DNA of 64,000 bases from Candidatus Micrarchaeota archaeon (GTDB lineage Archaea > Micrarchaeota > Micrarchaeia > Micrarchaeales > Micrarchaeaceae): positions 4,965-68,964 of the forward strand of contig JAJYTZ010000001.1 of assembly GCA_021792775.1 (NCBI GenBank). The letters are read 5' to 3'. A program made the translations under genes and the position numbers. Positions 55,253 through 58,575 of the stretch are shown here, piece after piece. Every line of letters begins with the position of its first letter. The stretch's first letter is position 1. Under the pieces are notes generated by a model. The model was not told the DNA's origin. It did no database searches and saw only the letters and a program-made list of their open reading frames with translations.

Positions 55253-57178
55253 CTACTTATACTTGCACAGTTCCCACAGTTTGCAAAAAGGCTTAGGTGT
55301 ATTTATTTTATTCTCCTCTATTGTAATGTATATACTATCTATAAGATGAACTATATTATTGCCTATTTTATGTAGTGGGTGGTGTTCATCTAAATTTATT
55401 TTATATGCATATCCATGCAATTTAGATTTTTTTCGTTCATCCGATTCATCAAGAAGAGCATTTTCTATACTATCCCTGAGCATTACATTGCTGGCTATCC
55501 CCCAATAAGAAAATGCATAATAAGAATAATACAATGCTTCCATAATAGATTTAATACGGTTACTGTTTTTATTCTGTTTATACCTAATATACATAAGCTC
55601 AGATTTCATATAATAAATACTCGCAAGCTTAAGCAATTTACTCATCATAAAATCTATTTTATCTATATCAAAGGATTTTACTAATCTTACACCCTTATGA
55701 ATATCCCCCTCAATTTTTTTATCACATTCAGAAACTTCTAAGAGAATCCAATATCTTTGCCATACGTCAACACTGCCATTTAAGACGGGCATGTTAAATT
55801 TTTGATGTATGCTTTTAACAATGTCCCTAATCCCTTCATGCACTGAAGGATTGTGATGCAAAATTACCACGTCACTATCTTTTTCTACTACTAATACATT
55901 ACCCTTAATTTCGAATATAAGTAATTCATCAGGCTTAGCATACGCAGCTTTAAGTTTGTTGTTTGCAATTAATCCTTTCCTATCAAGAAAAGTTATAGCA
56001 CCAGAGCTCCCATCTATTCGAATGTGTTCTGATTGTCTTATTATTTGCGCAGCTTTATCTAACCCGGCAATACATGGTATCTTATATTCACGTGCCAGAA
56101 TTGCCACGTGGGAAGTTATACCGGCAAGCTCGATAATGACGCCACCGAAATCTTTTATTATTTGTGAATCTTCTATAGGTAGATCTGTCGCTACAAGTAT
56201 CTTGTTCTTGCCCTTAATTAGATTATCCGATTTCTCTGAACCGAATATAACTGCTTCTCCAGAACATGTGCCACTACTTACACCTAGACAACTAAATGAC
56301 TGATTACCATATCTTATTGGTATCGTTGTTGTAAGCACCCTGGCTTGTAACAAAAATAGTCCTTCATTAGTATATGCCCACTCAATATCCAAAGGAAATA
56401 CTTTATTTCCGATACTTTTCATTAGTTTTATTATGTCTTCTATTTCAAAATCAAACAGTATACCTTTTAAGCTTTCAGCGTTATATCTTAGGATATCATT
56501 AGATTTAATATTTTTTATATAAGTATCATGTTTTTTTGAACCACCAGTTACGCCAGACGGATCATTTGTTGCTGCCTCAATAACACAATATCTATTAGCC
56601 TCTTTTTCAAAAAAGAATCCGACCCCATATTTTGCATTGGGAATAAATTCTTGTACTATACATGCCATCTCTATTTTTTCGATGTTTACCCTATTTTCTA
56701 TAATATACTTAATAGCTCTTGGACTAAACATGGATTTAAACACATTCTTGACGGCTGTGCTCACATCGAGTGGTTTCACATCTAGGAACGAATCAAAGAT
56801 GCCAGCAAAACTTCCGATTAACGAGTCCTCCTGAGTGGCTGAACTTCTTACAACTAAGTGCTCTCCAATACGCTTAGCCCTATCTAATATCTCATCCTGT
56901 ACTGACGCCTCAAATTCAATATCTTGAAAACATTCTGAAATTTTGTCCAAATAAGCAACTTTGGATAATTTATCATTCGCATACAGTTTCGCATATCTAA
57001 ATGCCCCACGATCGGATAGAACTTTTCTTAAAGAATTGTATATATATGTTGTTACTACAAATCCCTTAGGCACTTTTGCAATCTTTATAAATTTTGCTAG
57101 GTTAAATGCTTTATTTCCCACTACTTTTGGATTTAGTATATGGGTCGTTGCATTCAATTCTAAACAGCAGTCTTCCAT
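55253..57178 (-). CDS. PEP-utilising enzyme family protein (PpsA/rifampicin-phosphotransferase-like ATP-grasp plus phosphohistidine swivel domain) with unrecognised roughly 240-aa C-terminal domain
   Basis: 641 aa. N-terminal PPDK_N-type motifs VGNKAFNLAKF, VVRSSATQEDSLIGSFAGIFDSFLDV. Swivel domain GGVIIELAGITSHVAILAREYKIPCIAG (His356). No motif recognised in residues 400-641. Confidence 0.8.
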   Translation of the reverse strand: MEDCCLELNATTHILNPKVVGNKAFNLAKFIKIAKVPKGFVVTTYIYNSLRKVLSDRGAFRYAKLYANDKLSKVAYLDKISECFQDIEFEASVQDEILDRAKRIGEHLVVRSSATQEDSLIGSFAGIFDSFLDVKPLDVSTAVKNVFKSMFSPRAIKYIIENRVNIEKIEMACIVQEFIPNAKYGVGFFFEKEANRYCVIEAATNDPSGVTGGSKKHDTYIKNIKSNDILRYNAESLKGILFDFEIEDIIKLMKSIGNKVFPLDIEWAYTNEGLFLLQARVLTTTIPIRYGNQSFSCLGVSSGTCSGEAVIFGSEKSDNLIKGKNKILVATDLPIEDSQIIKDFGGVIIELAGITSHVAILAREYKIPCIAGLDKAAQIIRQSEHIRIDGSSGAITFLDRKGLIANNKLKAAYAKPDELLIFEIKGNVLVVEKDSDVVILHHNPSVHEGIRDIVKSIHQKFNMPVLNGSVDVWQRYWILLEVSECDKKIEGDIHKGVRLVKSFDIDKIDFMMSKLLKLASIYYMKSELMYIRYKQNKNSNRIKSIMEALYYSYYAFSYWGIASNVMLRDSIENALLDESDERKKSKLHGYAYKINLDEHHPLHKIGNNIVHLIDSIYITIEENKINTPKPFCKLWELCKYK

Positions 57179-57213
57179 GTGATCTGACCAGTACAGTTAT
57201 TTATTCCACGATA

Positions 57214-58431
57214 TTAACAAAGCTGATTTTTTATCTTATTATAAATATGTTCATAAACCTTATAGGTGGGGCATTCCTTATCGTTCTGAAGTGTGCTTCT
57301 ATTGTACATGTATCTGTCGAAAGTGCAAGCACCCTTACAACTGTCACGCCACTTGCAGTTTTCGCACATACTTAAGCTTGTAATCTGCGCAAGCAATAGC
57401 TTTTTGTAATTTTTTAATGAAAATATACTCTCTATGTTATCGATTTCATTTATCTTCGTAATTATTTCCCCATTTACGCCACCAAAAGCACGTGGGAACT
57501 TGTCACACGGTCTTATCGTACCGTCTGGGTAAAACGTAAAGGTGGTATTAGCGCATATTCCATGGCCTATCTGACATATCTTTGAACCCCTCCCTAGTAT
57601 AGTCCGCATTATCTCTTCAAACAATAAAATATGTATTTTGGGGTCATCATAATTATACCATATATCAAACAGTTCATTTACAAATGCCACATACTCATCT
57701 GATGGATAAATATTCGGTGTCAATTGTTTGTCATTCTCATCGAAAATAGGTTCTTGCGGCAAAAAATCAAAAGTGTAAATTTCATTTCTAACAAAGAAAT
57801 CAAATAGCTCCTTCGCCCCAAAGTTAATGCTGTCCTTAGTTACTACTGCTAAAGCACCAAAAGGAATCGCATGCCTCCTTAATATCTCCATCCCGCGCAT
57901 GACTTGAGCATGGGAGTTTCCAACTACAGCCTTTCTTTGCTGATTATGTAATTCTTCTGAACCATCTATACTAACTCCAAGCTGAAAAGCATTCTCTTTC
58001 ATGAATTTGGCCCATTCATCATTTATCAAAGCGCCGTTTGTTTGAATACTATTTTTGATTGTTATCTTATCATTCCCTAATTTTTCTTTCTGCGAAGCCA
58101 TTATTTTCTTAAAGAAGGGCAAACCACTTAAAAGCGGCTCTCCACCATGCCAAATAAAATCCACACTTGTTAGCTTTTCAGAATTCGCAATCTTGTCAAA
58201 TAAGCTCGAAATCTGATTAAAATCTATTGTTTCTGCATTTAAACCTCTTTCTCTAACCAAAGGTCCTGCAACACCACAATAAACACAAGATAAATTACAA
58301 TTGTTTGATAACTTGACTATTATTGCCATTCCAACTTCTTTAACCTTAGAATTTTCTTGGTATAACTGCATCATCATGCCTTTTTTTAGAAGCCCCAATC
58401 CATTCACCGTTTGAAAATCTACATTCCACAC
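57214..58431 (-). CDS. Radical SAM enzyme with C-terminal SPASM domain (anSME/peptide-maturase-like)
   Basis: 405 aa. CNLSCVYC (CxxxCxxC), GGEPLL, and the SPASM pattern CQIGHGIC...GTIRPC...CENCKWRDSCKGAC...ECP. The likely true start is MAIIVKLSNN (58329) or MMMQLY (58377). Confidence 0.9.
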   Translation of the reverse strand: MWNVDFQTVNGLGLLKKGMMMQLYQENSKVKEVGMAIIVKLSNNCNLSCVYCGVAGPLVRERGLNAETIDFNQISSLFDKIANSEKLTSVDFIWHGGEPLLSGLPFFKKIMASQKEKLGNDKITIKNSIQTNGALINDEWAKFMKENAFQLGVSIDGSEELHNQQRKAVVGNSHAQVMRGMEILRRHAIPFGALAVVTKDSINFGAKELFDFFVRNEIYTFDFLPQEPIFDENDKQLTPNIYPSDEYVAFVNELFDIWYNYDDPKIHILLFEEIMRTILGRGSKICQIGHGICANTTFTFYPDGTIRPCDKFPRAFGGVNGEIITKINEIDNIESIFSLKNYKKLLLAQITSLSMCENCKWRDSCKGACTFDRYMYNRSTLQNDKECPTYKVYEHIYNKIKNQLC

Positions 58432-58440
58432 TGTTATAAA

Positions 58441-58575
58441 TTAATAGGATTTTGAATGTAGATTATGCCCACGCCAGGTAAGGCTTGTTACAACAGAATC
58501 ATCACGCAAAAGTGCAATAAGTATCTTACTTTTTAGATTGTTCTCAGCGTTTCCTTTCTCAGTTTCTTTCATCAT
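58441..58575 (-). CDS. Candidate 44-aa peptide ORF immediately upstream of the radical SAM gene (possible precursor peptide)
   Basis: Hand translation: MMKETEKGNAENNLKSKILIALLRDDSVVTSLTWRGHNLHSKSY*. Same strand, stop 10 nt before the rSAM ATG, downstream of the repeat array. No Cys. Coding status unproven. Confidence 0.25.
   Translation of the reverse strand: MMKETEKGNAENNLKSKILIALLRDDSVVTSLTWRGHNLHSKSY

Follow-up and report, generated by a model that had tools for sequence, protein, structure and literature searches.

We analyzed a 64,000-nt window of a Candidatus Micrarchaeota archaeon genome (contig JAJYTZ010000001.1, positions 4,965 to 68,964), in which an earlier note, written from the letters alone, had singled out a cassette of three genes. 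All three are present as described, co-oriented on the minus strand: a 44-aa open reading frame (ORF), a radical S-adenosylmethionine (rSAM) enzyme of SPASM type, and a 641-aa enzyme of the phosphoenolpyruvate (PEP)-utilizing type, separated by gaps of 9 nt (from the GTG start of the rSAM gene) and 35 nt. We conclude that these genes very probably form a mobile cassette for a peptide that is made by ribosomes and modified after translation (RiPP). The best explanation of the cassette, to which we give a probability of about 0.5, is that the rSAM enzyme would cross-link the core of the encoded peptide and the 641-aa enzyme would phosphorylate that peptide, with a role in maturation favored.

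The small ORF encodes MMKETEKGNAENNLKSKILIALLRDDSVVTSLTWRGHNLHSKSY, whose leader has the motif KSKILxALLRDD and whose C-terminal part, up to the stop codon, is the core TWRGHNLHSKSY. The core consensus, TWRGH(N/S)LHSKSY, is rich in Trp and His. Because it has a leader, a core extending up to the stop codon and a place directly upstream of a SPASM maturase, the ORF is typical of RiPP precursors; leader and core can be read directly, and the role as substrate is what we infer from them. Similar peptides are encoded at related loci (L numbers). The peptide of L170 reads ...NLKSKILVALLRDDSVETGLTWRGHSLHSKSY, that of L171, where the rSAM enzyme is 48% identical to the window's, reads MSLKIKENKSKILIKLLRDLNSQNENEQNMWRGHSLHAKGECK, and those of L005 and L011 read ...INKIVD(K/R)IL(N/S)EPKKV..IYD(L/M)WRGRS. 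Leader K-I and core W-R-G are invariant in the window, in these four peptides and in a frameshifted copy at L010. The peptide accompanies the orthologous rSAM gene wherever the latter occurs, down to 45-48% rSAM identity. Over 32 codons compared between the window and L170 there are nine synonymous and four non-synonymous changes, which indicates that the window's peptide gene is under purifying selection. The family is very small, with only four members among 5.8 billion proteins. A conserved ORF with leader and core favors the first option of the earlier note, rSAM cross-linking combined with phosphoryl transfer on a peptide, although the function itself is predicted from sequence.

In the rSAM enzyme both cysteine motifs that had been claimed for it were read from the sequence: CX3CX2C at residues 45-52 and the full SPASM pattern CX2CX5CX3C at residues 356-369 (Cys 356, 359, 365 and 369), to which further auxiliary-cluster cysteines at 286, 293, 309 and 387 can be added. 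Both motifs, with a conserved small precursor gene adjoining, place the enzyme in the SPASM peptide-maturase superfamily. NCBI annotates a protein of 397 aa, and the alignment of homologs favors an ATG at 58371-58377 as the start. The profile assignments proposed in the earlier note were largely borne out, as Pfam recognized Radical_SAM here (E=2.7e-15) and PPDK_N and PEP-utilizers in the partner enzyme; the Pfam SPASM model itself gave no score, but the NCBIfam profiles for the anaerobic sulfatase-maturating enzyme (anSME), DynA and DarE align nearly full length, SPASM part included. Every score falls below its curated cut-off: the best NCBIfam match, the anSME model TIGR03942, scored 220.7 bits (cut-off 349.45), DynA (NF041298) 215.6 (450) and DarE (NF038005) 184 (650), and the cyclophane models YhhB, XyeB, GrrM and FxsB 150.6 (445), 101 (450), 146 (310) and 115 (370) bits, respectively. 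The enzyme's own subfamily consists of proteins P0121-P0134, beyond which identity is at most 37%. These matches suggest that it belongs to the group of anSME, DarE, DynA and three-residue-cyclophane enzymes.

The 641-aa enzyme carries the motifs VRSSATQED, SFAG and GITSHVAILAR (His357; codon 56108-56110), which agree with the Pfam assignments and with the ATP-grasp and phosphohistidine swivel domains named in the earlier note. A PPDK_N domain and a swivel His in G-x-T-S-H identify a member of the PEP-utilizing superfamily. His357 is invariant across the 641-aa family, as are the ATP-grasp residues G21, K23, R111-S112-S113, E117-D118, Q176, E266, Q278 and R280. The AlphaFold2 model of the whole enzyme has a predicted local distance difference test score (pLDDT) of 89 and a predicted template modeling (TM) score of 0.88. 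Its top Foldseek match is rifampicin phosphotransferase (Rph; 5hv1), with Rph and PPDK matched through the first two domains, and Rph is also the best match by sequence in the PDB. The third domain, about 240 aa that had been called unplaceable, has proved just that. Although it is well modeled when taken alone (pLDDT 88.6), Foldseek against PDB and BFVD gave nothing at E<0.05, the best PDB match being the CorA cytosolic domain (E=0.05, TM 0.32). The fold search returned no RiPP recognition element, lyase, TIM-barrel or Rph rifampicin-domain match, Pfam and NCBIfam contained no matching family, and HHalign comparison with Rph-like and PpsA alignments gave probabilities of 0.1% and 10%. Within the family the domain has nearly invariant residues of its own (G468, W473, L480, E481, Y533, A548 and Y558), and we presume that it binds the acceptor.

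Among 5.8 billion proteins searched, about 29 (P0001-P0029) are full-length relatives, at 30-100% identity; all further matches are to Rph-like and PpsA proteins and cover no more than the N-terminal 40-60% of the query. The C-terminal 250 residues matched only seven clusters among 1.84 billion representatives, all of 623-647 aa and of one architecture. In a neighbor-joining tree the family is monophyletic and stands apart from Rph-like and PpsA sequences, with main clades A, B and C/D and with P0027 and P0029 unplaced. The PpsA, Rph and PigC models match the enzyme over its first 400 residues only, with scores five to ten times under their cut-offs, and neither Pfam, NCBIfam (June 2026) nor PADLOC holds a model for the family. 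We conclude from these comparisons that the 641-aa enzyme is a new, rare family related to PEP synthase and Rph.

Enzymes of this superfamily use ATP to phosphorylate the swivel His, from which the phosphoryl group passes to an acceptor oxygen bound by a third domain; for PpsA and PPDK the acceptor is the enolate of pyruvate. We propose an analogous series of steps for the cassette. The 43/44-aa product, with its conserved leader and core, would be the substrate. The rSAM enzyme would abstract a side-chain hydrogen and form one or more aromatic-to-aliphatic cross-links on the core Trp or His, and a candidate is His-x-Lys in HSKSY, by analogy with W-S-K in darobactin's WSKSF; the likeness between these two core ends serves only as a lead. 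The 641-aa enzyme would bind ATP in its ATP-grasp domain, become phosphorylated on His357 and carry the phosphoryl group to the C-terminal domain. There a peptide oxygen would accept it, with the hydroxyl of a Ser, Thr or Tyr close to the C-terminus as the most likely acceptor. A phosphopeptide could result, or a dehydro-amino acid if beta-elimination follows, as in the Ser/Thr activation of class III-V lanthipeptides. As for precedents, Rph moves a phosphate of ATP through its swivel His to a hydroxyl of rifampicin (PMC4844700), and WprB is an rSAM enzyme that cross-links Trp and Arg (PMC11851443). Clade-A peptides that are paired with the PEP-utilizing-type enzyme end in hydroxyl residues (..HSKSY, ..WRGRS), and the sister peptide of L171, paired with a GNAT, ends in ..HAKGECK; the comparison is a weak hint in favor of the proposed steps. 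That the 641-aa enzyme acts on the peptide we regard as somewhat probable. The broader proposal, that its family is a new RiPP enzyme class of leader- or core-directed peptide phosphotransferases, activating Ser/Thr (or Tyr) by the phosphohistidine relay of PEP synthase and Rph in place of a protein-kinase, APH or LanB fold and spread by mini integrative elements of DPANN archaea, is tentative and possible rather than probable.

The pairing of the two enzymes is found beyond the window. We tallied 21 informative loci with a member of the 641-aa family, mostly in metagenome-assembled genomes (MAGs) and on short metagenome contigs. An intact SPASM rSAM gene adjoins the PEP-utilizing-type gene in a third of these (seven), an rSAM remnant lies directly upstream in eight, and six have no rSAM gene. 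The earlier note had allowed for a pairing peculiar to this one genome; instead we find it again elsewhere, both in genomes and in metagenomes, within two clades that use different rSAM subfamilies. Within clade A, L170 has the peptide, an rSAM gene (78% identical) and the PEP-utilizing-type gene in the same order, without an integrase. At L005/L012 and L011 the PEP-utilizing-type enzyme is 44% and the rSAM enzyme 45-46% identical to the window's, and the peptide and rSAM genes are convergent with the PEP-utilizing-type gene, with a pentapeptide-repeat protein encoded in between. The whole module of L005 (7519-14132) lies within perfect 300-nt direct repeats that start in tRNA-Glu, with an IS1634-like insertion, and that of L011 (7244-12811) within 34-nt direct repeats overlapping tRNA-Pro; neither module contains an integrase. 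Clade B (L001/L002, L007 and L096; 34-36% identical) has a 57-60-aa ORF, a 453-469-aa rSAM enzyme and the PEP-utilizing-type gene, and the rSAM and PEP-utilizing-type frames overlap in L001 and L007, where gene calls exist. The clade-B rSAM enzyme is PapB/SCIFF-like, carries an N-terminal extension and has about 27% identity with that of the window in the core, and the clade-B peptides share ..W(R/T)xSPWN...EPxP..CKRCxxP(K/R). Thus there are two rSAM subfamilies, one like anSME, DynA and DarE and one like PapB and SCIFF, each with a conserved small ORF of its own in front.

The reverse situation, a PEP-utilizing-type gene that has lost its companions, is equally part of the record. Intact PEP-utilizing-type genes follow 3' remnants of rSAM genes of 79 aa at L010 (where the peptide is frameshifted), about 10 aa at L174, 145 aa at L006, 40-78 aa at L090, L091 and L092, and about 25 aa at L093 and L094. 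The deletions at two of these loci map to L010:1200-1753 and L174:2875-3105. Since L096, with an intact rSAM gene, and L090/L091, with truncated ones, have a common upstream flank, the deletions happened in place. Some of the rSAM deletions could be assembly errors, yet assemblies made independently show them repeatedly, and the orphan genes are mutually diverged. The orphan PEP-utilizing-type genes have dN/dS values of 0.14-0.28 at dS up to 0.35, which is purifying selection; the rSAM partner is therefore dispensable for the enzyme. The rSAM gene also occurs without the other enzyme. In the sister cassette L171:6767-8565 (= L172), a member of the peptide family (..MWRGHSLHAKGECK) and the rSAM gene are followed by a 143-aa GNAT, with no PEP-utilizing-type enzyme. 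Judged from these loci, the pairing is conserved but not obligatory.

An alternative to maturation, which we hold to be less likely, is that the PEP-utilizing-type enzyme serves self-protection: it would phosphorylate and inactivate the mature cross-linked peptide in the producer, and the orphan copies would guard against the peptide of neighbors. Protection is favored because the orphan copies are under purifying selection (at least eight loci have an intact, selected gene without the peptide and most of the rSAM gene), because the nearest characterized relative, Rph, inactivates an antibiotic, and because a GNAT, from a classic antibiotic-inactivating family, replaces the enzyme in L171 and flanks its gene in L003, L006 and L007. 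GNATs also tailor cyclophane RiPPs, however (NCBIfam HaaN model, a weak match), and in L005/L011 the pentapeptide-repeat protein could itself be the immunity factor, of McbG/Qnr type (weak matches), which would speak against such a role for the PEP-utilizing-type enzyme at these loci.

A third clade, in which the peptides are rich in Cys and Ser, also bears on this choice. At L015 and L013, both from Micrarchaeota, the PEP-utilizing-type gene stands directly after a small Cys/Ser-rich ORF, without an rSAM gene; the peptide of L015 reads MSKQGFDIDLKVSDLPGYRPKPLGYGTKDCSHSCSGCCSGTCSSSNCCV and that of L013 ...GSKKCSDVSCAPGSLCC. Their neighbors are housekeeping genes and a tRNA, and no other RiPP enzyme is encoded within the visible neighborhood. 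These two-gene cassettes resemble bacteriocin-plus-immunity pairs. At L175:2817-5824 a 61-aa peptide (56% identical to that of L015) and the PEP-utilizing-type gene (P0025) are followed, 7 nt downstream, by a LanC-like gene (Pfam LANC_like, 58 bits), which is incomplete, the contig ending in an inverted-repeat (hairpin) artifact. The L175 precursor has a leader FDIDLKV, which we take to resemble the FNLD box of class I lanthipeptides, and a core CSxSCSGCCS. No dehydratase is encoded on this 5.8-kb contig, and the PEP-utilizing-type enzyme sits where a lanthipeptide dehydratase would be expected. An enzyme with a lanthipeptide-like precursor on one side and a LanC-like cyclase on the other fits biosynthesis better than protection, and the row of genes may represent a new lanthipeptide route. 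L008, whose PEP-utilizing-type gene adjoins a CCA-adding enzyme and tRNA-Ala(CGC) pair as does the window's array, likewise has a LanC-like N-terminal fragment after that gene (8007-8345).

Because of the L175 arrangement and the two-gene cassettes without any other enzyme, we lean modestly toward maturation over protection as the role of the phosphotransferase. Further in favor of a cassette that makes a cross-linked, phosphorylated peptide, the PEP-utilizing-type family is linked to small peptide genes together with three kinds of peptide-modifying partner. Several points weigh on the other side. Orphan PEP-utilizing-type genes stay intact and selected after loss of the peptide and rSAM genes, which would leave a tailoring enzyme with no substrate. 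The C-terminal domain shows no match to the fold of a RiPP recognition element or of a lyase, and the element has no exporter or leader protease. In W-R-G, the residue whose C-beta three-residue cyclophane enzymes would attack is a Gly, so the pattern of cross-links is not predictable. The link to LanC-like genes consists of one complete locus, L175 with its hairpin-artifact end, and the L008 fragment. Finally, the sample is small and drawn mostly from MAGs and short metagenome contigs, and for every family member the roles given to the cassette genes come from gene context and sequence.

A less probable alternative is that the genes are independent, the rSAM enzyme being a maturase of anSME or cofactor type with its substrate encoded elsewhere and the PEP-utilizing-type enzyme a small-molecule kinase (for an antibiotic, phenol or metabolite) or a VadK-like regulatory histidine kinase. 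Each gene does occur without the other, the PEP-utilizing-type gene being maintained at many loci without an rSAM gene and the rSAM gene being found without the other in L171. The anSME model is the best NCBIfam match of the rSAM enzyme, and regulatory kinases are known among PPDK derivatives devoid of the TIM barrel, as with VadK (PMC13400623). In opposition to this, the rSAM enzyme, at 220.7 bits, falls short of the 349 set for the anSME model, and the element, which holds only the integrase, peptide, rSAM and PEP-utilizing-type genes, contains no sulfatase gene. Moreover, a conserved ORF with leader and core always precedes the rSAM gene, and a link of so rare a family (seven clusters among 1.84 billion) to lanthipeptide-like peptides as well as to rSAM enzymes of two unrelated subfamilies is unlikely to arise by chance.

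Very improbable, finally, is a module for defense against viruses and other mobile genetic elements or for addiction, in which a modified peptide or nucleotide would act inside the cell under control of the ATP-dependent enzyme: at several loci the cassette does sit on integrative elements inserted at tRNA genes, often beside restriction-modification, GmrSD, Mrr/NspV, toxin-antitoxin or PDC-S01 genes, and its element has no exporter, but bacteriocin cassettes are commonly mobile too, the rSAM enzyme is of peptide-maturase rather than viperin type, and PADLOC gave only a weak match of the rSAM core to pVip (viperin), with no PADLOC-DB 2.0 match for the 641-aa enzyme or the peptide. We found no positive evidence for the defense and nucleic-acid-modification options of the earlier note, and no PADLOC model fits them. 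IMG/VR contigs contain no relative of the PEP-utilizing-type family. We also rejected a viral origin of the cassette, as neither the PEP-utilizing-type family nor the rSAM enzyme has relatives in IMG/VR, where the integrase had one weak match at 25% identity.

The cassette lies in a tandem array at a tRNA-Ala(CGC) gene. The 3' part of this gene is present in four copies (53027-53070, 55180-55223, 59726-59769 and 60628-60671), and therefore the region 53027-60699 is a tandem array of three insertions. The first unit (59770-60627) lacks an integrase and carries only a PIN_2 toxin gene with a small ORF upstream of it. The second, the cassette element of 4.5 kb (55224-59725), contains an integrase gene and the three cassette genes and nothing else, so the attachment site (att) boundaries confirm that these genes are the sole cargo of an integrase element. 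The third (53071-55179) holds the remnant of an IS1634 transposase gene (53487-54059) and an integrase gene (54245-55228) paralogous to that of the cassette element, the two being 71% identical over a 300-nt stretch. Coordinates of the features of the array and cassette are collected in the table.

Features of the cassette, of its encoded domains and of the surrounding element (positions in the 64,000-nt window)
Feature	Position	Strand	Remarks
Precursor-peptide gene	58441-58575	-	44 aa, 43 aa from second Met; 43-aa gene in NCBI/ENA annotation
Radical SAM/SPASM enzyme	57214-58431	-	405 aa from GTG; Pfam Radical_SAM; predicted peptide maturase
PEP-utilizing-type phosphotransferase	55253-57178	-	641 aa; Pfam PPDK_N and PEP-utilizers
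ATP-grasp domain (PPDK_N, residues 19-285, E=1.3e-34)	56324-57124	-	
Phosphohistidine swivel domain (PEP-utilizers, residues 324-393, E=3.1e-17)	56000-56209	-	
C-terminal domain, family-specific (residues ~400-641)	55256-55981	-	small beta-sheet, then long helical bundle
Candidate archaeal TATA box TTAAATAG	58607-58614	-	~32 nt upstream of peptide ATG; kept in L170 and L010
Six CTCTACATG repeats, both orientations	58644-58789		between integrase stop and cassette promoter
Tyrosine recombinase/integrase of cassette element	58815-59663	-	Pfam Phage_integrase; NCBIfam XerA-like match below cut-off
att copy (tRNA-Ala 3' part), tRNA-side boundary of cassette element	59726-59769		
att copy (tRNA-Ala 3' part), far boundary of cassette element	55180-55223		next tandem element starts here
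tRNA-Ala(CGC), integration target of tandem array	60627-60699	-	

The TATA-like sequence TTAAATAG is a plausible promoter of the cassette. Scans of 52.5-61 kb with Rfam and with promoter and terminator models recovered the tRNA alone; sigma-70 and terminator counts there are at chance level, and those models do not apply to archaea. The repeat-rich region upstream of the operon, which had been read as operator-like, consists of real repeats: with one mismatch allowed, CTCTACATG has 15 matches in the window against 4.5 expected, and none of 100 shuffles reached 15. We nevertheless rejected it as an operator of the cassette, as the sequence is enriched in this element only and is absent upstream of the peptide in the related cassettes L170 and L010. 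We assign the cluster to the integrase element, probably as arm-type sites of the recombinase or sites of an element-specific regulator. Base composition likewise agrees with the earlier note in part. The cassette is the longest AT-rich stretch of the window (GC 0.36 at 55-58 kb, where the whole averages about 0.45), but it is not the most AT-rich one, since GC falls to 0.33 at 49001-50000.

Other genes of the window have their best matches in Candidatus Micrarchaeota MAGs (L014; 46% identity over 778 aa) and in the metagenome contigs L095, L091 and L008, which carry the family; these matches make a DPANN archaeon the probable host. On L008 (3951-6001) a CCA-adding enzyme and a tRNA-Ala(CGC) site like the window's are present, the site being occupied by a PEP-utilizing-type gene of a different clade. 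Just past the tRNA on L008 there is a sequence like the element-end repeat of the window (55084-55132, 59654-59702).

Beside the att array, at 48550-53258, lies an AT-rich island enclosed by the two copies of a 100-nt direct repeat (48550-48649 and 53159-53258), which are 87% identical. Encoded in it are a restriction endonuclease of DpnII type (48669-49517), a methyltransferase of Type II (49527-50396), an ATPase (50532-51809) that matches the PADLOC candidate PDC-S01 (E=1.6e-96) and a PIN/VapC pair (52207-52798), and the whole looks like a separate defense island. A 158-aa ORF at 63421-63897 with a Cas12f1-like TNB (TnpB) domain is probably a truncated IS200/IS605 TnpB. Two further loci came to our attention. 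In a Clostridia MAG (L048:5009-9622) a TetR gene, a 447-aa rSAM enzyme and an 836-aa Rph-type enzyme stand in a row; we rejected this locus as the same type of cassette, given its different architecture and the lack of a visible peptide. In a Micrarchaeota MAG (L003:4669-6864, = L034) an orphan PEP-utilizing-type gene has, 2 kb upstream, an 85-aa ORF and the genes for an rSAM enzyme and a cytidylate-kinase-like protein. The pair of rSAM and cytidylate-kinase-like proteins was considered as viperin-like and rejected, as the rSAM protein is HemN-like, of the STM4012 family; it has no evident link to the PEP-utilizing-type gene.

In line with the earlier note, none of the libraries and papers searched describes a system that pairs the two enzyme families of the cassette. 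Its enzymes stay under the cut-offs of the anSME, DarE, DynA, PpsA, Rph and PigC models, and a full-text literature search found no paper that links RiPPs, rSAM enzymes or lanthipeptides with PEP-utilizing or Rph-type enzymes. A PEP-utilizing enzyme that acts on a ribosomal peptide would, if the proposal is true, be a new tailoring or dehydration chemistry. Combined with two different rSAM maturases, the phosphotransferase could lead to phosphorylated or dehydrated cross-linked peptides, and a new peptide phosphotransferase combined with a LanC-like cyclase would be a new route to lanthipeptides. For genome mining the family offers a new search handle, as current rules do not seek PPDK_N and PEP-utilizers beside precursors. 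DPANN episymbionts, whose genomes are reduced, would be swapping cassettes for peptide toxins or signals on tRNA-integrating elements of 4-5 kb, and the repeated loss of producer genes with the phosphotransferase kept points to an arms race.

Among characterized enzymes that share the first two domains, Rph is the nearest. It combines ATP-grasp and swivel-His domains with a third domain for the acceptor, and it is the best PDB match. The order of domains differs, in that the His domain of Rph is C-terminal (profile positions 763-864 of 865) and that of the 641-aa enzyme is central (324-393). The acceptor domains are unrelated by HHalign, PF27448 is absent, and the Rph model NF041857 gives 129.3 bits against a cut-off of 999. 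PEP synthase and PPDK do have the order of ATP-grasp and then swivel His, with conserved catalytic residues, but the 641-aa enzyme lacks their PEP/pyruvate-binding TIM barrel (PF02896) and scores 128 bits with TIGR01418 (cut-off 740) and 43 with TIGR01828 (cut-off 843). In VadK (Rv1127c) and PigC/RedH, as here, the ATP-grasp and swivel-His module has been reused and the pyruvate domain lost or replaced; their C-terminal regions are unrelated to that of the 641-aa enzyme, and they have no link to peptide genes. For enzyme evolution the family would add to this module an acceptor domain not seen before, earlier acceptors being pyruvate, rifampicin, phenol and prodigiosin precursors.

Phosphorylation of Ser or Thr followed by elimination is the logic of dehydration in class III/IV and class V lanthipeptides. 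The relatives at L175, L015 and L013, which follow Cys/Ser-rich precursors, and in L175 precede a LanC-like gene, recall the kinase-type systems of this kind (LanKC/LanL and LxmK/LxmY). Unlike LanKC, LanL and LxmK, the 641-aa enzyme has a PEP-utilizing phosphohistidine fold, which is neither protein-kinase- nor APH-like, and no recognizable lyase domain. The window itself has no LanC gene and a core without Cys, and lanthipeptide features are confined to L175, L008, L015 and L013.

With the darobactin and dynobactin systems the window shares a short precursor directly upstream of a single SPASM rSAM enzyme of the anSME group, with DynA and DarE among its best matches, and a Trp/His-rich core at the end of the peptide. 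It differs from them in its archaeal host, its core WRGHxLH, its extra PEP-utilizing-type enzyme and the absence of an ABC exporter, and the DynA and DarE scores lie far under their cut-offs. The triceptides provide the other comparison: the rSAM enzyme matches YhhB, GrrM, XyeB and FxsB, the core can be read as the triplets WRG, HNL and HSK, and the sister cassette L171 pairs its rSAM enzyme with a GNAT, as triceptide systems do with the GNAT HaaN. Against this stand the sub-cut-off level of all matches and the Gly in third place of WRG. We know of no triceptide system with a phosphotransferase, and a literature search found none. By these comparisons, the cassette most resembles an rSAM RiPP operon of daropeptide or triceptide type to which a putative tailoring or immunity enzyme has been added.

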